DNA from: Candidatus Deianiraeaceae bacterium
GTDB taxonomy: Bacteria > Pseudomonadota > Alphaproteobacteria > Rickettsiales > Deianiraeaceae
Assembly (NCBI GenBank): GCA_044370655.1
Contig: JBILVD010000001.1
Location: 12,385-36,384, forward strand
Direction of reading: 5' to 3'
Length of the DNA stretch: 24,000 bases
This document shows positions 1,025 through 22,750 of this stretch, piece after piece; positions within the stretch are counted from its first letter, which is position 1, and each line of letters opens with the position of its first letter. The notes below the pieces were generated by a model that saw only the letters and a list, made by a program, of their open reading frames with translations, ran no database searches and was not told the origin of the DNA. The translations under genes were made by a program, and so were the position numbers.

Positions 1025-1653
1025 CATGCATTATAACAGCTGGTGGGTTTGGTGAAAGATTTTCTTCCCATATCCCAAAACAGTATCATAAAATAGGAGA
1101 TGATTATATCCTACAAAAAACAATCAACATATTCAAAGCATTTACAAGCAATATTGTAACTGTAATAAGGAAGGAAGATGAAGAATTTTTTAAAGAGCAT
1201 TTTATTGGAGAGGAGTATGTTATTGGAGGTAAAACAAGGCAGGCATCTGTTTTGAAAGGTCTTAAATTTTTGGCAGAGCAGGGGGTTAATTATAAGGACG
1301 TTCTCATAACAGATGGAGTAAGACCTTTTGTTTCAAATAAATTAATTAAGGAGGTTATTAGATGTTTGCATGATGGAGAGCTTGGAGTTATCCTTTGTAT
1401 TAAAATTCAAGATACTATAAAAAGAGTGCATAATAATTATGTAATCGAAACAGTTGAAAGAGAAGGTTTGTTTGCAACTCAAACTCCGCAAGGTTTTAAA
1501 TTTAATATAATTTATGGTCTACATATGAAGTATCAAAATTTAAACCTTACAGACGATGCAGGGCTTCTTGAGAAGGAGGGAATTAAGGTGAAGGTTGTTG
1601 AAGGCGAGAAGTCTAATATCAAAATTACCACTAGAGAAGATTTATATTATTAG
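1018..1653 (+). CDS. ispD: 2-C-methyl-D-erythritol 4-phosphate cytidylyltransferase (monofunctional IspD)
   Basis: N-terminal 'IITAGGFGERF...PKQY' matches the IspD nucleotide-binding loop. 'TQTPQGF' and C-terminal 'NIKITTREDL' match IspD signatures. The length (~210 aa) fits a stand-alone IspD. Confidence 0.85.
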   Translation: MLACIITAGGFGERFSSHIPKQYHKIGDDYILQKTINIFKAFTSNIVTVIRKEDEEFFKEHFIGEEYVIGGKTRQASVLKGLKFLAEQGVNYKDVLITDGVRPFVSNKLIKEVIRCLHDGELGVILCIKIQDTIKRVHNNYVIETVEREGLFATQTPQGFKFNIIYGLHMKYQNLNLTDDAGLLEKEGIKVKVVEGEKSNIKITTREDLYY

Positions 1654-3208
1654 AATAACTTGTAAGCCAACTTACCTCATCATCAGTTAAAATTTCATAA
1701 TCAAGTAATTTTGTCTCAATATGGGCTTTTGTTAGAACTTCAAATTCTAAAAACCCTTCTAGCTTACTCTTTTTTACTAAGATTAAATTTTCAAATCTAA
1801 CGCCAAAAAACCCTTCTTTGTAATACCCTGGTTCGTTTGAAAGTATCATCCCTGCCTGTAATGGAGTATTTGAATGTTTTGAGATGGAGCAGGGCTTTTC
1901 GTGAACGGAGAGAAAATAGCCAACTCCATGACCAGTGCCGTGGTTATAAGTTAATCCTTCCTTCCATAGAAATTGCCTTGCTAGAATATCAAGCTCTGCT
2001 CCCGTTGTGCCAAAAGGAAAAACTGCCATACACAATGAAATATGCCCCTTTAAAACCAAAGTGTAAGCTCTTTTTTCTTCTTCGTTTGCATTTTCTCCAA
2101 CCATAAATACACGAGTTATATCTGTTGTTCCGCAAATTTTCTCTGTTTTATGGTAATACTGCCCACCGCTATCCACAAGCAAAAGCCCATTCCCTTTAAT
2201 TTGTTTTGCTGACTCTTTTTTTGCTTTATAATGCACGATTGCACCATTTTCCTTAAATCCAACTATTGGAGCAAAACTTTCCATTACAAATCCTGTTTGC
2301 TTTTTTCTAAATTCGAGTAATTTTTCGCCTAAAGTAAACTCAGTTTCATTTTCTAGCTTTGCCTTTTTAAGCCAATTTGCAAACTCTTTAATCGCTTTTC
2401 CATCTTGAGCGTGTGCTTTTTTTATACATTCTATTTCAAATTCTGTCTTGATTATTTTTTGATTTTGAATAAAATTTTGCTTTTCAAATATAATTTCATT
2501 TTGCTTAGAAAGCTCTAAAAATATAGAATAGGGAGCGGACAATTGAAGTAATATTTTACCATATTTCAAATTTTGCACTTCACTAGGAGAGACAAGTTTT
2601 TGCGTTTCACGTGAAACAATTGCAAAAAATGGAACTACTGGAGAATAATCTAAATATCTTCCACGAATGTTAAGTAGATAGCAAACGTCGTGAGGGTCGC
2701 TTATAAAAAGTGCATCTGCCTCACATTCTTCTATATATTTTAGGGATTTTATGATTTTTTCCTCCTTACTATCCCCTGCAAGTTCAAAATTTGATGTTTC
2801 ACGTGAAACATTTATTTCTCTTTGCCAAATTTTATCTATGGGGCAGTTATCTACTATTTCAAAATTTAAGCCTTTTGCTTTTAAATCTTGAATAAATTGA
2901 TAGGAATAAAATTTTCCGTCAAGTGCGAAGTTTATTTTTTTTAAATGTGTAATTAAAGTTGATACATCTAATATTTCAAACTTTTGACCGCATTCCATTT
3001 GTGCTTGAATTACATATCTTCCATCTATAAAAAGAAGATTTTTATTAGAGTTTTTAAAAATTAATGCAAAGGCTGTAGAGCCTGTAAATCCTGTTAAAAA
3101 CTCTAGTCTTTTTGCATGAGAAGGAGTGTATTCCCCTAAAAATTCATCACTTGTTGTTATTAAAAAAGCTTCAATTGATTGAGGCAGAAAATTAAATATG
3201 TCTTTCAT
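1631..3208 (-). CDS. pepP: Xaa-Pro aminopeptidase, M24B family with creatinase-like N-terminal domains
   Basis: Pita-bread metal-ligand motifs 'HGTGHGVGYFLSVHE' and 'SNEPGYY...GVRFEN' are present, along with 'TDITR'. The ORF is 525 aa. It contains two parS palindromes in the poorly conserved N-terminal half. Confidence 0.8.
   Translation of the reverse strand: MKDIFNFLPQSIEAFLITTSDEFLGEYTPSHAKRLEFLTGFTGSTAFALIFKNSNKNLLFIDGRYVIQAQMECGQKFEILDVSTLITHLKKINFALDGKFYSYQFIQDLKAKGLNFEIVDNCPIDKIWQREINVSRETSNFELAGDSKEEKIIKSLKYIEECEADALFISDPHDVCYLLNIRGRYLDYSPVVPFFAIVSRETQKLVSPSEVQNLKYGKILLQLSAPYSIFLELSKQNEIIFEKQNFIQNQKIIKTEFEIECIKKAHAQDGKAIKEFANWLKKAKLENETEFTLGEKLLEFRKKQTGFVMESFAPIVGFKENGAIVHYKAKKESAKQIKGNGLLLVDSGGQYYHKTEKICGTTDITRVFMVGENANEEEKRAYTLVLKGHISLCMAVFPFGTTGAELDILARQFLWKEGLTYNHGTGHGVGYFLSVHEKPCSISKHSNTPLQAGMILSNEPGYYKEGFFGVRFENLILVKKSKLEGFLEFEVLTKAHIETKLLDYEILTDDEVSWLTSYSNNINLL
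2603..2618. other. parS-like ParB-binding site, 15/16 match (cGTTTCACGTGAAACA)
   Basis: The 14-bp perfect palindrome GTTTCACGTGAAAC is present, and the outer 5' T is replaced by C. The site lies inside pepP and is read as VSRET on the minus strand. Confidence 0.7.
2795..2810. other. parS ParB-binding site, perfect 16/16 (TGTTTCACGTGAAACA)
   Basis: An exact match to the palindromic form of the parS consensus TGTTNCACGTGAAACA. It is inside pepP, 192 bp from the previous site, and is read as VSRET. Confidence 0.8.
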
Positions 3209-3951
3209 TTGATATCAAAATTAAAATATTCGTCTTTAAAAGGTTCGTTTTTTAATGTAAAATGCCACCATTCTCCGTTAATTCCCTTAAATCCATTTTT
3301 CTCCATAATCTTTCGCAAAAACTCCCTTTTTTTGTTAAATTCTTGGCTCATTAAAGGGCTATTCGCCCAACTTTCTGTGCCAAAAAAGTCCCAATGCATT
3401 CCCATATCTTCAGTGCAATCATCAAGAAAGGTAAACTTCCCCCTCTTTACAGACTTTACTTTACAAATTTTTTGCCCTTTTTTTATTATACTCACATCAA
3501 TAGTGCTCCCTCTAGAATGGGTTGATTTTTTTGCAACAAATCCCCTCTTAAAAATTTCATCCTTTGAAAGTTCGGGAAAATAAAAAAATTTTTTCTCTTC
3601 ATTTTCTTCTTTTGCCCATTTAATCATATCTTCACTTGCTTTTCTTGGACGATATCCATCATAAACTACAATTTCAAATCCTTCTCTTAAAAAGTCTTCA
3701 TTTGCTTTTTTAATTGCGAGCCCCGCCTCTTTTGTTAGTATAATTTCTGATTTTAAATAACCAGCCAAAATGCGACCTGTAAAATTTTCCTCCTCCGCAT
3801 ACCTAACTGATTGTTGAATTTCTGGTGCTATATTTTTTAGATACACGAAGCTCTCAGGAATTGCAAAAGAGGTGGTAAAAAATGTCATAAAAAGGTAAAA
3901 AAATATCATAAAACAACATTTATTATTATATATCTCAACCATATTTAACAA
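3205..3951 (-). CDS. ddpX: D-alanyl-D-alanine dipeptidase (M15D, VanX/DdpX-like) with N-terminal hydrophobic signal/anchor
   Basis: Has 'YDGYRP', 'STHSRGSTIDVS' (the SxHxxGxAxD-type zinc motif) and 'GEWWHF', which are typical of VanX/DdpX. The N-terminus 'MIFFYLFMTFFTTSFA' looks like a signal peptide. The true start may be one of the internal Met codons (3942 or 3909). Confidence 0.8.
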   Translation of the reverse strand: MLNMVEIYNNKCCFMIFFYLFMTFFTTSFAIPESFVYLKNIAPEIQQSVRYAEEENFTGRILAGYLKSEIILTKEAGLAIKKANEDFLREGFEIVVYDGYRPRKASEDMIKWAKEENEEKKFFYFPELSKDEIFKRGFVAKKSTHSRGSTIDVSIIKKGQKICKVKSVKRGKFTFLDDCTEDMGMHWDFFGTESWANSPLMSQEFNKKREFLRKIMEKNGFKGINGEWWHFTLKNEPFKDEYFNFDIK

Positions 3952-4031
3952 AATAGCAAGAGAAATTAATTATTTGCTTGCTTTTTGCAAGATTTATCTA
4001 TATTAAATTAAGTAATATTAAGGTTTTAGAT

Positions 4032-6944
4032 ATGAAAGAATTGACTAAATTTTTTGATTACAGGACAAGAGAGAAAGAGATTGCAGAAAAATGGAAAATG
4101 GAAAAATTTTATAAATTTGAAAACGTTGGAACTTCTTTTAAGATAGATACTCCGCCTCCAACTGTTTCAGGCTTGCTTCATATGGGGCATGTTTTTTCAT
4201 ATGTGCAAGCAGACATAATTGCAAGATATAAAAGACAACTTGGTTATGATGTTTTTTACCCCATTGGTTTTGATGATAACGGGCTTCCAACTGAAAGACT
4301 TGTTGAAAAATTGACAGGTAAAAAAGCTTTAAAAAATGCAACAAAAGAAGAATTTATTAAAGAGTGTAATAGAGTTATAGAAGAAGCAGAGAAAGATTTT
4401 GAAGATTTATTTACTAAAATTGGTCTTTCTGTTGATTTTGATCTTAAATATCAAACCATATCTCCAAAAACAGCGGAAATTAGTCAGGATTCTTTTGTAG
4501 ACTTATATAAAAAGGGGCTTGTATATCAAAAGCTTGCCCCTGTTTATTTTGACACGACGGATAAAACTGCCCTTGCACAGGCGGATATTGAAGATAGAGA
4601 AACGGCAGGTTTGCAGGTTGTATATAAAGCTCTTATTGACCTTGGGAATGACAAATTTGAGACAGTTGATATAATGACAACAAGGTCAGAGATGCTTCCC
4701 GCTTGCGTTTGCGTGCTTTACCACCCTGAAGATGAGCGTTATTTAAAATTTGCAGGTAAAAAAATTCTTTTACCTAACAAAGGAGGGGAGTATGACCTTG
4801 AGGTTTGCATGATTGCTGATTTTGACGTTTCTCGTGAAAAGGGAACGGGGCTTGTGATGTGCTGTGCGTTTGGAGATATGCAAGATAAAGTATGGATAGA
4901 AAGGTATAATTTATGGTCTTTAATTCCAATTAGATACGCTTTGCAAAATGGAATGCCAAGCATTGAAAAGACAGAATTTTCTAGCCAAAACTTAATTACA
5001 GATGACGGATTTGTGAATGACAGTCTTTTTGTTAAGGAAGATGGTAAGTTTATGAAAGTTGAGGAAGCGAGAAAATTTATAATAGAAAAGATGGTATCTA
5101 TGGGGCTTGTTGTTGGCTCTAAAATTGGAGATAATTTTGAAGACGCTTTAAATGATGAAGGAATAAAATTAAATAGAATTTCTCATACCGTTAAATGCGG
5201 TGAAAGAAGCGGAAAGCCAGTTGAGATACTTCTTAAAAATCAATGGTATTTAAGTTTATTACCTTTTAAGAGGGATTTTATGGAAGTTGTAAAACGCATA
5301 AATTTTTACCCTAGTCAAATGAAAATTCGCTTAGAGCAATGGATAGAAGGTTTAAATCAAGATTGGTGTATTTCTCGTGATAGATTTTTTGGAATATCAA
5401 TTCCAGTTCGTGAATTTGAATTTATAGATAATGTTTCACGTAAAACAATGGATAATATAAAAAATGATTTTTATAGAGAGACGCTTAGCACTTTAATTCA
5501 AAAATCGGGAGGACTAGCAAAAGAAGATTACTTTGAAATGGAAGCACAAAATTTGCAAGACATGATGGAAAGTCCAGAGTATTTGAGCTTTGAAGATAGT
5601 TTTGTTTTGAGTGGTCTTGACTTAGAAGTTAAAAATATCGGTATTAAGAAGTATGTAATTGAAATTCATAGAAACCTAGATGGCGTGTTTAATGAATTTT
5701 TGTCAGAAGTTGGAGGAGAGAGGTGTGAAGGTGGTAAGTTTATATTGAAAGACGGAAAGTTAGAGTTTTTACAGCAATTGATTAAAGAAAAGTTAAACAT
5801 GCTTGAAGAAGATTTAGGTATTTCTAATTTGCAAGTCAAAACTGAACCTGCGGTTTTTGACACTTGGTTTACAAGCTCCATTAGCCCTCAAGTTGCATTT
5901 GGAAGTTTGATGGAAACTCCCGTTTTTGACCTTCGCCCCCAAGCTCATGAAATAATAAGAACATGGGCGTTTTACACGATGGTAAAGTCTTATCTTCACT
6001 CTCTTGAGTTAAAATCGGAGGAAAAAAAGCCAAATGCAAAATCTCCTTTCAATTCCCGTGAATTTTTTAGAATGAAAGAGAATCCAAATATAATTCCTTG
6101 GAAGAGCGTAATGCTTTCTGGTTGGTGCCTTGCTAGCGATAAAACAAAAATGAGTAAATCTAAAGGCAATGTAATCACACCACTGAAATTAATTGAAGAA
6201 AAAGGAGTGGATACAATACGTCTTTGGTGTGCTTCTGCAAGTTTAGGTATGGATACCGCATATGATGAGAATTTTCTTGAAGAAGGAAAGAGGTTTGTTA
6301 ACAAATTATGGAATGCATTTAAGTTTTTTGCACTAAAAGAGGAATATTTTGATGAAACGGCAAAAATTACAGAAAGTTTTGATAAATGGATAATTGCTCG
6401 TTTAAATGAAGTGTTAATTGAATACAAAATGCAAATGGATATTTTTGAGTATTCTAAAGCAAAAGATATTTTAGATAGCTTTTTTTGGAAAGATGTGTGT
6501 GACAATTATTTAGAGATTATAAAAGTGCGTTATTACGGTCTTGAAGCTTTAATTTATAAAGAAAATCCCTCTCAAAATCCTGACGAGGTTTTAGCAAAAC
6601 AAAAGTCTGCGATTAAAACTTTAAAAATTATTCTTGAAAGTCTCTTAGTGTTGTATGCCCCATTTGCAACATTTATCACAGAAGAGCTTTCAATGAAGTT
6701 TTTTGGTTATTCAATTCACAAGAGAGGTTCGCTTAAAAATCTTTCTATCCCAAGTTTTGAAAACAACCTAACTGCTATTGAAGCATTAAGATTAATTGAA
6801 TTTGTTCGTAAATATAAAAGTGAGAATTCTCTTTCCATGAATGCAAGTATAGATGAATTTAGCTTTACTGCAACTAACAATTTAACATCCTTCGAGGAAG
6901 ATTTGAAAAACGTGACAAGTGTAAAAAATTTTAAGTTTTTATGA
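4032..6944 (+). CDS. valS: valine--tRNA ligase, type-2 (archaeal-like) form with lineage-specific insertions
   Basis: Contains 'PPPTVSGLLHMGHVFSY' (HIGH-type motif), 'WCISRDRFFG', 'DTWFTSS' and 'KMSKSKGN'. The ORF track opens at a TTG at 3978, but ATG 4032 (MKELTKFF...) is the more plausible start. The 3' end overlaps the rlpA start (ATGA). Confidence 0.9.
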   Translation: MKELTKFFDYRTREKEIAEKWKMEKFYKFENVGTSFKIDTPPPTVSGLLHMGHVFSYVQADIIARYKRQLGYDVFYPIGFDDNGLPTERLVEKLTGKKALKNATKEEFIKECNRVIEEAEKDFEDLFTKIGLSVDFDLKYQTISPKTAEISQDSFVDLYKKGLVYQKLAPVYFDTTDKTALAQADIEDRETAGLQVVYKALIDLGNDKFETVDIMTTRSEMLPACVCVLYHPEDERYLKFAGKKILLPNKGGEYDLEVCMIADFDVSREKGTGLVMCCAFGDMQDKVWIERYNLWSLIPIRYALQNGMPSIEKTEFSSQNLITDDGFVNDSLFVKEDGKFMKVEEARKFIIEKMVSMGLVVGSKIGDNFEDALNDEGIKLNRISHTVKCGERSGKPVEILLKNQWYLSLLPFKRDFMEVVKRINFYPSQMKIRLEQWIEGLNQDWCISRDRFFGISIPVREFEFIDNVSRKTMDNIKNDFYRETLSTLIQKSGGLAKEDYFEMEAQNLQDMMESPEYLSFEDSFVLSGLDLEVKNIGIKKYVIEIHRNLDGVFNEFLSEVGGERCEGGKFILKDGKLEFLQQLIKEKLNMLEEDLGISNLQVKTEPAVFDTWFTSSISPQVAFGSLMETPVFDLRPQAHEIIRTWAFYTMVKSYLHSLELKSEEKKPNAKSPFNSREFFRMKENPNIIPWKSVMLSGWCLASDKTKMSKSKGNVITPLKLIEEKGVDTIRLWCASASLGMDTAYDENFLEEGKRFVNKLWNAFKFFALKEEYFDETAKITESFDKWIIARLNEVLIEYKMQMDIFEYSKAKDILDSFFWKDVCDNYLEIIKVRYYGLEALIYKENPSQNPDEVLAKQKSAIKTLKIILESLLVLYAPFATFITEELSMKFFGYSIHKRGSLKNLSIPSFENNLTAIEALRLIEFVRKYKSENSLSMNASIDEFSFTATNNLTSFEEDLKNVTSVKNFKFL
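5432..5447. other. parS-like site, 15/16 match (TGTTTCACGTaAAACA)
   Basis: There is a single G to A change at position 11. The site is inside the lineage-specific insertion of valS and is read as VSRKT. Confidence 0.55.
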
Positions 6945-7765
6945 GAAAGAGCTTTTTTTTGGTTTTAGTTTGTATATTATTAAATTGCAATCTATCTTTT
7001 GCTAGTTATGATAAGTCTAAATTTGGAGACTACAAAGTTGGAAATCCCTACAAAATTGGCAAAAAAGAATATATTCCTAAAAAATACAACTCGCTTGAAG
7101 AAGAAGGTTATATATCTTGGTATGGCCCTGGTTTTCATGCAAAAAAAACAGCAAATGGAGCTAAGTTTAATAAAAACTCTTACACGGTAGCACATAAAAC
7201 TCTTCAAATGCCTGCCGTTATTGAAATTACAAATTTGGAAAATGGTAAAAAATTAATTGCAGTTGTCAACGATAGAGGGCCTTTCTCCGAAACTCAACAT
7301 AGAATTTTAGACGTATCAGAAAAAATCGCTAAAGATTTAGACTTTTTAAAAAAAGGAGTTGTACGTGCTAGAATAAAATTTTTACCAAAAGAGACGCAAA
7401 GATTAATGCAAGGAAAGAGTATAAAATTAGGTTTAGTTTCAAATCCAGTAAAAACAAAGGAATTTACTCCTCAAAAACAAGTTGTTTCACGTGAAACAAC
7501 AAAAACTGATTTCAGTCAAGGATATCTAGTTGGAGTTTATATTCAAGTTGGAGTATTTAAAAATCCCAATAATGCAATAAGTGTATTGAGAAAATTAGAG
7601 AATGATGGCATTAAAGAAGCAAAAATAACAACAGAAAAAACAAAAAGCGGAGATAGTGTTGAGATTGTGAGAATTGGACCTTTAAATGAAGAGATACAAG
7701 AAAAAACCTTGACTAAAGTCAAAAATCTTGGATACTCTAATGCACGAATATTAACTTTAAACTAA
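6941..7765 (+). CDS. rlpA: septal ring lytic transglycosylase RlpA-family protein (DPBB domain + C-terminal SPOR domain)
   Basis: Has a signal peptide, an RlpA DPBB core ('GYISWYGPGFHAKKTANG...AHKTLQMPAVIEITNLENGK...VNDRGPF') and a C-terminal SPOR-like segment ('GVYIQVGVFKNPNNA...IVRIGP'). A perfect parS lies in the inter-domain linker. Confidence 0.85.
   Translation: MRKSFFLVLVCILLNCNLSFASYDKSKFGDYKVGNPYKIGKKEYIPKKYNSLEEEGYISWYGPGFHAKKTANGAKFNKNSYTVAHKTLQMPAVIEITNLENGKKLIAVVNDRGPFSETQHRILDVSEKIAKDLDFLKKGVVRARIKFLPKETQRLMQGKSIKLGLVSNPVKTKEFTPQKQVVSRETTKTDFSQGYLVGVYIQVGVFKNPNNAISVLRKLENDGIKEAKITTEKTKSGDSVEIVRIGPLNEEIQEKTLTKVKNLGYSNARILTLN
7483..7498. other. parS ParB-binding site, perfect 16/16 (TGTTTCACGTGAAACA; palindrome extends to 20 bp)
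   Basis: The sequence gttGTTTCACGTGAAACaac lies inside the rlpA DPBB-SPOR linker and is read as VSRET. Confidence 0.8.
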
Positions 7766-7768
7766 AAT

Positions 7769-8515
7769 ATGAAAATTCTAAAAGCACAAAAACTAAATCA
7801 GGATTTATCTATTACAATTATAACCTTCTATTACTTTGCTACAATTAAGGAAGGTATTCATTTATTTAGGGATAAACTTGAAGACTTTTGCAGAAAGCAT
7901 AATATTTTTGGAACTGTTTTAATTGCAGAAGAGGGCGTTAACGGAACTCTCTCTATTGCGAATGAAGATGTTGAAAAACTATATTCTTTTTTCGAAGTTT
8001 ATGAAGAATTTAAAGACATTACATTTAAAGAAAGTTATTATAAAACCCATGCTTTTGGAAAATTAAAAATTAGAATAAAAAAAGAAGTTGTTTCAAGCGG
8101 GGAAGCAAGGTGTGAATACAACCCTGGATTTTATGTTGAACCTAAAGATTGGGACACTTTTATATCAAGACCAGATGTTATCAACATTGATACAAGAAAC
8201 GATTTTGAATATATAATTGGCACTTTTAAAGGCTCTATAAATCCTAAAACTGATACATTTCGTGAATTTAAAGAATGGTGTGAAATTAATTTAAAAGATA
8301 AAAATCAAATTATAGCAGGCTTTTGCACTGGAGGAGTGAGATGTGAAAAATCTACCTCTTGGTTAAAAAAAGCAGGATACAAAAATGTTTATCACTTAAA
8401 AGGTGGTATCATTGGATATTTCATTGAAACAGGAAATGAAAATGGAATGTGGAGAGGAGATTGTTTTGTTTTTGACGATAGAGTTGTAATTAACGATAAA
8501 CTAGAATCATGTTAA
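7769..8515 (+). CDS. trhO: rhodanese-domain protein, UPF0176/TrhO family (tRNA U34 hydroxylase-like)
   Basis: Has 'GTVLIAEEGVNGT' and the rhodanese active-site loop 'CTGGVRCEKS', followed by 'GGIIGY', as in YceA/TrhO. Confidence 0.8.
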   Translation: MKILKAQKLNQDLSITIITFYYFATIKEGIHLFRDKLEDFCRKHNIFGTVLIAEEGVNGTLSIANEDVEKLYSFFEVYEEFKDITFKESYYKTHAFGKLKIRIKKEVVSSGEARCEYNPGFYVEPKDWDTFISRPDVINIDTRNDFEYIIGTFKGSINPKTDTFREFKEWCEINLKDKNQIIAGFCTGGVRCEKSTSWLKKAGYKNVYHLKGGIIGYFIETGNENGMWRGDCFVFDDRVVINDKLESC

Positions 8516-11130: not shown

Positions 11131-11499
11131 TTAAATACATATTGCAAAAGCATTTTTATTTGCCCCTTTTTTGACAACACTTATTTCAAATACTCTCAAA
11201 GAGGGAATATATCTAACACCATCTCTATCTTTAAATGTATTACTAGGAATAAAACCGATGCTTAAATTTATTTTCCTTTTCGCAAATTCAGGAATTATCT
11301 TCCCTTCCACAAAAAGCCCTCTATCGTTTTGAGTTATTCTTTCAATAACTCCTATCTTTTTTTTTGGGTTATGCTCTAATAATAAAGGAAGATGACAGGC
11401 TTTATCCCACTTTGCACCTCCCAATATTACATCTTTATTTAAATCTAATTGATTAAAAATGCTTGCATAACCATAAAAAAACTTGCTATTTTTAAACAT
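11131..11499 (-). CDS. HK97-family phage prohead protease (Peptidase S78/U35), orphan
   Basis: Matches the family pattern with '[22 protein letters not shown]', 'LPLLLEHN...IG', 'DRGLFVEG', 'LSIGF' and '[16 protein letters not shown]'. No portal or capsid gene is adjacent. Confidence 0.7.
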
Positions 11500-16940: not shown

Positions 16941-16968
16941 AACTAAAAACTATTTTTCATCTTGTTTA

Positions 16969-16997
16969 TTTATAAAACAAAAAAACAAAAAAGTCAA
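16969..16997 (-). promoter_or_regulatory. candidate sigma70-type promoter for cydAB
   Basis: On the minus strand: TTGACT (16997-16992), an exactly 17-nt spacer, then TATAAA (16974-16969). The -10 ends 28 nt upstream of the cydA ATG. The AT-rich background makes chance matches possible. Confidence 0.4.
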
Positions 16998-17111
16998 TTA
17001 TAAAAATATTCTTTCTTACTTTAGAAACTTAATAAAAATACATATAAATAAATTTGACTTTTAGTAAATTTTATAATACTTAAACATGAAAAATAAGTAT
17101 AAATTTATTTT

Positions 17112-17564
17112 ATGGTAATTAGAAGGATTTTTGGTAATCCAAAAAACCGAAAAAATAGGCAAGAACTATCAAAAATTAACTCTTCAAAGGAAATTTTTGT
17201 AAAAAAAAGAAAAAAGTTAGAAGATGACGAAAGTGGTGATAGCTCTGAATTTAGAGATGGTTTTAACATTTTTGGAGATATGTTCAAGTATGAGTACTTT
17301 AAAGATGTCAAAAAAATTAAAATCTCAAATGCGGAGGAAGGCTCTGACCAAGAAACTTTGAAACATCCTAAATTAAAAAATAAAAAAGTGGATGTAATAT
17401 ACAGCGACTTCACAGGCGGAGTCTTTGACGTAAAAGAAGGGCGTAATCAATCACAAAACGATGAAAATGCAATTTCAAACACAGTAATAACAGACAACGT
17501 AGGTAATAAAATTGTTAAACCTATCAAAAGAAATAAAAACAAAAATTCAATTATAGGGTTTTAA
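17112..17564 (+). CDS. hypothetical Lys/Asn-rich protein, no recognisable domain
   Basis: A 150-aa ORF with purine-rich coding-like skew on the + strand. I recognise no motif. The overlapping antisense ORF (17105-17413) is Ser/Leu/Phe-rich and looks like a shadow ORF. Confidence 0.4.
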   Translation: MVIRRIFGNPKNRKNRQELSKINSSKEIFVKKRKKLEDDESGDSSEFRDGFNIFGDMFKYEYFKDVKKIKISNAEEGSDQETLKHPKLKNKKVDVIYSDFTGGVFDVKEGRNQSQNDENAISNTVITDNVGNKIVKPIKRNKNKNSIIGF

Positions 17565-17756
17565 ATTTATTTAAATATTTTTCTATATATAAAAATTTAA
17601 TAATTATTAATTGTTTAAAAAGTTCAAATCTCAAAAATAATTATTTTTTTTATAATATTTTATTAAAAAAACTTGCAATTTTAAAAATGTTTGTAACTGA
17701 TTATAAATGTTTATAACTTTTAGTTTTGAACAATTTTAAACAATTACAAACAACAT

Positions 17757-20511: not shown

Positions 20512-21237
20512 ATGGATAATGACTTGCAAGACATTGCATTGCAAATTGAGAATTTTAAATCCTTTATCTTGCAATTAATTCAGGCTCAAGGTTTTGAATT
20601 TAAGAGAAAAAAAACCCCAGATGGTTCTATTACTGTTGAAGTGTTTCCTAGGTTTATTACCCCAAAGTTAGATTCTATTCCCAGAATGTTAAGGGCGGTA
20701 AAAATTTTAAGATTAGATACAAGTCCTCTAATTAACAAGATTGCTGCTTCCATGGCAGAAGCTATAAGTAATGCAATAGAAAAGAGAATTTATAGAAACG
20801 AAATAATTGCAAAAGTAGAAACCTTTAATAATGAGATAGAAAAAATTTTTAAAGAATTGTTAAGCCGAAGAAAAGATAGTAAAGTAAATGAAAAAGATGT
20901 CAAAAAGTATATACTTAAAGATAAAAAAGATACTAAATTAGAAAAAATAGTTAAGGATATGGTTGCCAATTTGGAAGCTTTAGAAGATATTAAAGAATAC
21001 AAAAAGAAATGTAAGGAGTACGATTTAGGTTCAAAAATTGCTTTTGATAATTTATTACCTGATTATGCCACCTTCTCATATGTTTTAACCCCAGAAGAGG
21101 TAAAAATTGCTTTTGATAATTTATTACCTGATTATGCCACCCTCTCATATGTTTTAACCCCAGAAGAGGTAAAACCAGAAGATTTAAGTAATAGCAAATA
21201 CAGAAGTCCAACATTTAAAGACCCAAAAAATCGATAA
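20512..21237 (+). CDS. hypothetical coiled-coil/Lys-rich protein with duplicated 23-aa C-terminal module
   Basis: A 241-aa ORF in which I recognise no family. It contains the tandem 'IAFDNLLPDYAT(F/L)SYVLTPEEVK' x2. Its 3' end overlaps the thiD 3' end convergently by 23 nt. Confidence 0.55.
   Translation: MDNDLQDIALQIENFKSFILQLIQAQGFEFKRKKTPDGSITVEVFPRFITPKLDSIPRMLRAVKILRLDTSPLINKIAASMAEAISNAIEKRIYRNEIIAKVETFNNEIEKIFKELLSRRKDSKVNEKDVKKYILKDKKDTKLEKIVKDMVANLEALEDIKEYKKKCKEYDLGSKIAFDNLLPDYATFSYVLTPEEVKIAFDNLLPDYATLSYVLTPEEVKPEDLSNSKYRSPTFKDPKNR
21033..21170. repeat. 69-bp tandem duplication (2 copies, 68/69 identical)
   Basis: 21033-21101 and 21102-21170 are identical except T21073 versus C21142 (Phe to Leu). 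The unit is 23 codons long, so it stays in frame. Confidence 0.95.
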
Positions 21238-21910: not shown

Positions 21911-22750
21911 TTAACTTTTAATTTGCTTTAAAACAAGTTCCTTGCAATTTTTTATATTCCAACTAGAAGGAACCTCGGATGCAAATATTTCATCAGTGCA
22001 TGTGTTTTTACATTTAAAGTAATCTCTGCTAAAACTTCCTGATATTTCATTGCATGTTATTTCAAGGTTATTATTACAGATCGCAGGTTTTACCACCCCA
22101 ATTTGTTTTGTAAATATGATTTCTGTTCTATCTTTTACTTTAGTGCACTGAGTCTTACCATTAGTTGTTTTTTCTGTAAACATTTCACAACTAGCTCTTG
22201 TACATTCTAGTAAGTCACAATTACTGTTGGTAATTTTGTCTTTCACTTTTTCAAGATTTAAAACGTTTTTAAATCCTATTTTCTGACTCAGATTTTCTGT
22301 CGTTTCAAGGCAAGCAAGTGCTTGATTTTTAGTGCAAAGCCCACTACTTGAGCCTGTTATCTGTATAACCAATTTTTGAGCTCCAATTAAAATTCCAATT
22401 CCAGTAATTATTTGTGCAAAAGTTATAAGACCAAACTTACCAATAAATAAATATATACCAGCAAAACTTGCCGCAAATAAACCTACATACTTGATTATAT
22501 CTGATTGAACAAATGATACAAATCTACATATTGCAATGTTAACCGCATTTGCAACGCAAATTCCAGAATTCGCCTCCCCAACCGAACCTGAGCAATAATA
22601 ACCTGCGGCACAAGGATAATTAACCCCACAGGATTGATATTGTTCATTCCCAAAACTTAGTTTTGTAAAAAAGATTGAAAATATAATTGTAAAAATTGTA
22701 AAACCAGCTTTCATATTAAACTTGACATTCGTTATATAATAAATTAACAC
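21911..22750 (-). CDS. secreted/membrane Cys-rich protein with VirB2/TrbC-like pilin core
   Basis: The likely start is Met at 22714 ('MKAGFTIFTIIFSIFFTKLSFG' signal peptide). The core 'ICRFVSFVQSDIIKYVGLFAASFAGIYLFIGKFGLITFAQIITGIGILIGAQKLVIQITG' follows the two-helix VirB2/TrbC pattern (..G....fGK..; ..G..i..GA......tG). It is followed by a ~150-aa extension carrying 11 of the protein's 16 Cys. It abuts thiD with no gap. Confidence 0.5.
   Translation of the reverse strand: MLIYYITNVKFNMKAGFTIFTIIFSIFFTKLSFGNEQYQSCGVNYPCAAGYYCSGSVGEANSGICVANAVNIAICRFVSFVQSDIIKYVGLFAASFAGIYLFIGKFGLITFAQIITGIGILIGAQKLVIQITGSSSGLCTKNQALACLETTENLSQKIGFKNVLNLEKVKDKITNSNCDLLECTRASCEMFTEKTTNGKTQCTKVKDRTEIIFTKQIGVVKPAICNNNLEITCNEISGSFSRDYFKCKNTCTDEIFASEVPSSWNIKNCKELVLKQIKS

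Follow-up and report, generated by a model that had tools for sequence, protein, structure and literature searches.

Four putative parS sites within coding sequence point to a probable centromere cluster in an uncultured Rickettsiales bacterium

A 24,000-nt stretch of the genome of a Candidatus Deianiraeaceae bacterium (assembly GCA_044370655.1, contig JBILVD010000001.1, positions 12,385 to 36,384 of the forward strand; this whole stretch is hereafter termed the window) carries a 16-bp palindrome four times within 4.9 kb, each time inside a protein-coding gene. We consider it likely, with a rough probability of 0.85, that these four 16-mers are working chromosomal parS sites of the type recognised by ParB, and that they are maintained by selection. 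Taken together, the sites are best explained as the centromere, or as one centromere cluster, of this uncultured Rickettsiales bacterium with its low guanine-cytosine (GC) content. The reading is based on the match to the parS consensus, on the clustering of the sites and on their preservation at identical codons in related genomes, with a choice of codons that the encoded peptides do not call for.

Results

A search of the window for TGTTTCACGTGAAACA with up to three mismatches returned exactly four matches, and these are the copies that the initial annotation had placed at 2603, 2795, 5432 and 7483. Site 2 (2795-2810) and site 4 (7483-7498) are perfect, and site 1 (2603-2618, CGTTTCACGTGAAACA) and site 3 (5432-5447, TGTTTCACGTAAAACA) match at 15 of 16 positions, with one mismatch each. 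In site 3, the deviation is a G-to-A change at G11 of the core that turns E into K in the encoded protein. Site 4 can be extended to a palindrome of 20 bp, GTTGTTTCACGTGAAACAAC; a terminator-like hairpin called at 7481-7500 is nothing other than this parS palindrome within rlpA. Chromosomal parS has the consensus TGTTNCACGTGAAACA, shared across phyla (PMC7022226), which the palindrome of the window fits at 16/16 positions in two sites and at 15/16 in the other two, in agreement with the identity initially proposed. At a GC content of 30.6%, the expectation for exact copies amounts to 0.347^10 x 0.153^6 x 24000, or ~8e-6 per window, close to the first estimate of ~1e-5 per 24 kb. With up to three mismatches allowed, dinucleotide-preserving shuffles averaged 0.15 matches, and none of 100 reached four, which upholds the earlier statement that four copies are not due to chance. 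The sites are thus more frequent than chance, and they are limited to one region of the DNA seen: no further site was found in the 10 kb upstream of the window (L001), in its remaining 16.5 kb or in the ~2 kb of contig sequence beyond its end (L004). The four are hence the sole ones in the ~36 kb seen of the host genome, which is a part of that genome, so that clusters elsewhere are possible; for scans of whole assemblies we propose the pattern TGTTNCACGTGNAACA with up to two mismatches.

The host genes belong to one block. Sites 1 and 2 lie in an M24 Xaa-Pro aminopeptidase-like gene (pepP, 1631..3208, minus strand; Peptidase_M24 at 7.5e-52, Creatinase_N and Creatinase_N_2), next to which lies a gene for a D-Ala-D-Ala dipeptidase (M15, VanX/DdpX-like; 3205..3951, minus strand) that stands between the site-bearing genes and has no site itself. 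Site 3 lies in the gene for an archaeal-type valine--tRNA ligase (valS, PRK13208; 4032..6944, plus strand; its product is abbreviated ValRS), and site 4 in rlpA (6941..7765, plus strand), which encodes a lytic transglycosylase with DPBB and SPOR domains. The open reading frame (ORF) finder had begun valS at a TTG at 3978; its true start is probably the ATG at 4032, because the N-terminus MKELTKFF of the homologues matches there. Within the pepP-like protein, site 2 (N-V-S-R-E-T, residues 133-137) falls between Creatinase_N (11-119) and Creatinase_N_2 (142-203), and site 1 (I-V-S-R-E-T on the coding minus strand, residues 197-201) at the end of Creatinase_N_2. Site 4 (V-V-S-R-E-T) is located in the RlpA linker between DPBB (54-143) and SPOR (198-250). 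Site 3 (N-V-S-R-K-T) opens a stretch of ~140 ValRS residues to which only ~43 residues correspond in a Deianiraeaceae ValRS, the alignment to this homologue breaking at residue 465 and resuming at 608. The same region (5430-5860, ValRS residues ~466-607) can be described as a clade-specific insertion of ~140 residues. Domain and family matches thus agree with the gene identities of the initial annotation, and domain maps and the ValRS alignment with its view that the sites occupy protein segments tolerant of change. Its further observation that all four sites are intragenic, translate as V-S-R-E/K-T in the frame of the host gene and contain TGA in one of the other frames was reproduced as well. 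The weight it had placed on the shared frame was an over-reading, however: TGA in one frame leaves only two frames usable, so that agreement of three further sites has a chance probability of 1/8 and carries no significance on its own; in relatives, moreover, the other frame is in use.

A second VSRE peptide occurs in valS at 4797-4812 (residues 265-270, DVSREKG), spelled GTT TCT CGT GAA AAG with four mismatches to parS; its counterpart in the related locus L170 reads GTT TCA CGT GAA AAG, with two mismatches. This may be a decaying or a nascent site.

A scan of genome contigs with a ValRS alignment brought up a single clade member (L089) together with 79 loci of greater distance; a metagenome scan found only distant relatives. 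Proteins of the window are present on contigs of the NCBI metagenome-assembled genome (MAG) GCA_041443065.1, of JGI metagenome 3300059473 and of Logan assemblies, and the named ValRS homologues belong to Rickettsiales and Candidatus Deianiraeaceae. DNA of the clade was compared for L089, L169, L170 and L171, and two further members (P0004 and P0005) were compared by gene order and the VSRET motif of ValRS only. All ValRS sequences from P0002 to P0007 (63-74% identical) have VSRET at the position of site 3, in variable surroundings, and the motif is absent from this position in P0008 and P0009 (55-56% identical). In the codon alignment, the valS site sits at identical codons in five genomes (the window, L089, L169, L170 and L171), being perfect in three of the four relatives and differing by one synonymous change in L169. 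Both pepP sites are found at identical codons in the window, L169 and L170, with a spacing of 192 bp in all three. The site in the rlpA linker is common to the window and L089, perfect in both, and rlpA of L169 and L170 has no site. By locus, L089 (CAZFPN01) carries perfect sites in valS and in the rlpA linker, L169 the two pepP sites and one valS site, L170 two pepP sites, one perfect valS site and a weaker one, and L171 four sites, all in valS. Thus, individual sites have been gained and lost within the cluster across relatives.

The distribution beyond this clade is narrow, ~2.1 Mb of other valS neighbourhoods being nearly devoid of the motif. A scan with up to two mismatches of 2.18 Mb (169 sequences, comprising the window, contigs of the same genome and the valS neighbourhoods retrieved so far, mostly from Rickettsiales) gave matches only in this clade, in the pair L011/L095 described below and, as a single match with two mismatches, in L052. 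In L007, L172 and L173, the relatives next in closeness, the 14-22 kb surrounding valS contain no site; therefore, the cluster would have arisen within the sub-clade. From the sequence comparisons, it appears to have originated in the common ancestor of those members with ValRS identities of at least 63%, via point mutations in coding sequence.

At the codon level, the sites are more conserved than their surroundings. Where two genomes encode the same amino acid, the codon is identical in 88% of cases (65/74) in parS codons versus 56% (3885/6926) elsewhere in the same genes, an excess with a nominal Fisher P of 9e-9 that is computed over pairs that are not phylogenetically independent. By count, VSRET can be spelled in 1152 ways, and the spelling GTT TCA CGT GAA ACA has a probability of 0.006 under the window's own codon usage, with CGT making up 13% of the Arg codons; for another peptide of the window, VSRI, the codons are the ordinary GTT AGT AGA. 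The base preceding the first codon is T in most copies, the exceptions being site 1 of the window and the far side of the second pepP site of L170. Further, L171 and L095 accommodate the palindrome in the other open frame, as L/F-H-V-K/E-H. In L171, a perfect parS at 2153-2168 in valS results from replacement of ISPKTAE by VSRETSY in a conserved ValRS block, and two more valS sites use the other frame (L-H-V-K-H), an insertion of two residues accompanying one of these. The ISPKT-to-VSRET site and the sites in the other frame therefore indicate selection on the DNA and not on the peptide. Retention of codon positions in three to five genomes, the excess of codon identity, the spelling of VSRET and the use of the alternate frame amount to a constraint beyond coding need, and argue that the DNA sequence of the sites is under purifying selection across related genomes. 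The DNA-level selection within ORFs suggested by the initial annotation is thereby substantiated, with the same codons and the same rare codon choices in up to five genomes.

L169 offers a special case. All three of its sites (3582-3597, 3774-3789 and 5721-5736) read TGTTTCTCGTGAAACA on one contig strand, and no canonical copy of the palindrome is present in its 8.7 kb. The variant involves CGT to CGA in pepP (minus strand) and TCA to TCT in valS (plus strand), so that these genes, being on opposite strands, had to undergo different synonymous changes to yield one and the same variant on one strand. This lineage-wide asymmetric variant thus seems, as judged from the codons affected, to have been selected at the DNA level.

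The pair L011 and L095, which belong to one other Rickettsiales/alphaproteobacterial lineage (ValRS 45% identical), carries a perfect TGTTCCACGTGGAACA in a different valS insertion (2545-2560 in L095, 2546 in L011), translated as M-F-H-V-E-H. L095 has in addition AGTTCCACGTGTAACA at the 3' end of mltG (7824-7839), 5.3 kb from the valS site. This looks like a second, independent case of parS within valS, with a CC/GG variant of the putative site.

Genes for the cognate proteins were sought in the DNA at hand. Pfam and NCBIfam annotation of the window ORFs gave no ParB and no ParA, and the window encodes no ParA, ParB, GidA/B, DnaA or HemE, just as the initial annotation had stated for parAB, gidAB, dnaA and hemE. 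The 10 kb upstream (L001) contain a mraY/wecA-like gene, mlaC, prs, htpG, lepB, gap and a pentapeptide protein gene; neither there nor in the ~2 kb overhang of L004 was a par gene, gidAB, dnaA or a cluster of DnaA boxes detected, and the upstream DNA has no hemE. A tblastn search of 2.2 Mb with Bacillus subtilis Spo0J and Soj queries yielded one ParA, in L025, and no ParB, no database-wide search for ParB having been made. At that locus (2264-8161; ValRS 42% identical), the gene order is gidA-gidB-parA-valS, with parA directly upstream of valS, no detectable parB after parA, and a parS-like CGTTCCACGTGAAGCA at 4148, at the start of gidB. With gidA-gidB-parA directly upstream of valS and a parS-like sequence in gidB, L025 gives the only, and indirect, hint at closeness to the origin: in this group, valS may have neighboured the partition locus for a long time.

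Discussion

By analogy with characterised ParABS systems, we infer ParB binding, spreading, loading of structural maintenance of chromosomes (SMC) complexes and closeness to the origin for the cluster described here. ParB dimers would recognise each palindrome via their helix-turn-helix, bind cytidine triphosphate (CTP), form closed clamps and spread by sliding over several kb of the adjoining DNA, such that a ParB complex would span the pepP-ddpX-valS-rlpA block. ParA would move this complex, and SMC loading there is probable.

Several observations weigh against this interpretation. ParB and ParA were found neither in the window nor in its surroundings (10 kb upstream, ~2 kb past the end), nor at any clade locus, where coverage around the cluster is ~10 kb per side as far as the contig reaches and several contigs are shorter. 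ParB cannot be assumed, since parAB has been lost in some Rickettsiales, namely Wolbachia wBm and Anaplasma phagocytophilum (PMC1914354). Hallmarks of an origin are lacking in the window as well: DnaA-box-like 9-mers number 5 versus 6.8 expected, CtrA-type TTAA-N7-TTAA sites 5 versus 7.7 expected, and the cumulative GC skew runs without a turning point and tracks gene orientation. Finally, sites 1 and 3 depart from the consensus, the latter at G11 of the core, and may bind weakly.

Among known systems, the cluster comes close to that of Caulobacter crescentus, where at least five parS sites are clustered, ParB occupies ~10 kb and the cluster lies ~8 kb from ori (PMC5815017). Both bacteria are Alphaproteobacteria, and in both, several consensus palindromes, perfect ones mixed with ones bearing a single mismatch, are assembled in a few kb. 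The Caulobacter cluster adjoins parAB, whereas the one described here is found without parAB, gidAB or an origin marker from -10 kb to +16.5 kb, and has all its putative sites in coding sequence. In B. subtilis, Spo0J uses parS sites of the same 16-bp consensus TGTTNCACGTGAAACA (PMC7022226, Table 1). Its 10 sites, of which the ori domain holds 8, are distributed across a large origin-proximal domain, whereas the four of the window fall within 5 kb. Lin and Grossman reportedly described in 1998 that B. subtilis parS sites lie inside coding sequence, including one in spo0J itself. Many parS copies in one origin-proximal region are likewise a feature of Myxococcus xanthus (22), Corynebacterium glutamicum (10) and Streptomyces coelicolor (21) (PMC7022226, Table 1). 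These arrays are larger and experimentally verified, and the ParB of their hosts is known. The Myxococcus variant TGTTCCACGTGGAACG resembles that of L095.

The explanation that deserves most attention besides parS sites served by a canonical ParB, and that we nevertheless regard as unlikely, is that the palindromes are bound not by a canonical ParB but by another protein, such as a ParB-like paralogue or an unrelated regulator, or that they are parS sites in a lineage that no longer has ParA-driven segregation, where they serve other ends only, for example SMC loading or gene regulation. It would account for the lack of ParB and ParA in ~36 kb and at the clade loci, it accords with the existence of Rickettsiales without parAB (PMC1914354) and with the L025 locus, where parA stands beside valS and no parB is detectable, and the asymmetric variant at every site of L169 would fit in as well. 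The search for ParB covered a small part of the genome only, however, the sequence is exactly the parS consensus used by chromosomal ParB proteins across phyla (PMC7022226), and several copies within a few kb are typical of centromeres (PMC5815017). We know of no other protein family that uses this 16-mer.

To the remaining explanations we give very little credence. The idea that a shared peptide, V-S-R-E-T, was selected at the protein level and that the palindrome is a by-product draws on the four window copies that all encode VSRE/KT and on the conservation of the peptide in ValRS homologues. Yet there is no relationship among the three host proteins, and it is in linkers or insertions that the sites are found; the same codons recur despite 1152 possible spellings (P = 0.006), relatives encode LHVKH or MFHVEH from the same DNA in another frame, the preceding base is mostly T, and VSRI elsewhere is written in ordinary codons. 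This codon and frame evidence effectively refutes a protein motif, which we hold to be highly improbable. Much the same low standing goes to the proposal that the 16-mers are cores of a mobile palindromic element akin to the Rickettsia palindromic elements (RPEs), which are palindromic DNA residing in frame inside protein-coding genes of Rickettsiales. The host is indeed a member of the Rickettsiales, and the sites are in frame in change-tolerant segments, one of them at the edge of the valS insertion. RPEs, however, have a length of ~100-150 bp and are similar along all of it, whereas the window sites share 16-20 bp only and have unrelated flanks: over 60 nt, flank identities are 0.27-0.33 in either orientation versus 0.29±0.05 for random pairs, which is background, and a repeat finder extends the family only to ~25 nt of AT-rich sequence. 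The shared segment is thus 16-25 nt instead of ~100 bp or more, and the sites in pepP and in the conserved valS block arose by substitution, not insertion. A mobile element is refuted by the similarity ending at the 16-20 bp palindrome. As for chance occurrence in AT-rich DNA, nothing speaks for it except the low sequence complexity of the genome, and its probability is practically nil: it is refuted by the shuffles, by the expectation of ~8e-6 exact copies and by the conservation of the sites in relatives.

Returning to functional parS sites as the favoured reading, one may go further and imagine that the centromere was rebuilt by point mutation in the pepP-ddpX-valS-rlpA block, away from parAB, and that it is still turning over, with the five-residue change in L171 and the asymmetric shift in L169 as cases in point. 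We consider this extension doubtful and put it forward tentatively; were it correct, it would imply either that ParB specificity has co-evolved or that parS functions in an orientation-dependent manner.

Both parS sites inside genes and clusters of such sites are well known, and the cluster in the window is a clear instance, though an ordinary one, of a known element that leaves the current understanding of ParABS systems unchanged. Its value lies in showing where an uncultured Rickettsiales lineage from freshwater probably has its centromere, and in providing an unusually clean natural case of a putative DNA-binding site that constrains synonymous, and sometimes non-synonymous, positions of essential genes. 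The sites may also serve as a marker by which fragmented MAGs from this clade can be oriented with respect to the partition complex, and the gain and loss of sites together with the lineage-wide asymmetric variant form a natural experiment on ParB-parS specificity. Specialists may take note of the clear imprint on codon choice, of the gain and loss of sites, one of them gained by non-synonymous change in an essential enzyme, of the cluster's apparent distance from parAB and of the variant in L169.

Other features of the window

The window further encodes an α/β-hydrolase (287-1024), ispD, trhO, dapF, an acyl-CoA ligase, panD, nusB, fabD, cydAB, mltG, two SMR genes, thiD, a VirB2-like protein, bolA, ybaB and holC; neither a tRNA gene nor an Rfam family was detected in it. 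Adjoining panD, a lone 122-residue fragment of an HK97-type prohead protease (Peptidase_S78) is encoded at 11131-11499 on the minus strand, and the same pair occurs on the P0004 contig; a gene-transfer agent or a prophage has probably left this fragment behind. The most AT-rich stretch (16941-17756, ~23% GC) contains a Lys-rich ORF of 150 residues without a family match (17112-17564) together with an antisense ORF that overlaps it, and, at 17681-17718, a short tandem repeat of 20 bp. A 69-bp tandem duplication (21033-21174; 2.1 copies, 98% identical) within the ORF at 20512-21237 repeats the peptide IAFDNLLPDYAT(F/L)SYVLTPEEVK in a 241-residue protein, likewise without a family match. A protein of 279 residues encoded at 21911-22750 (minus strand) shows a weak match to TrbC/VirB2 pilin in its N-terminal part, followed by a long Cys-rich C-terminal extension, and VirB2-like genes are also found near valS in L007, L095 and L173.

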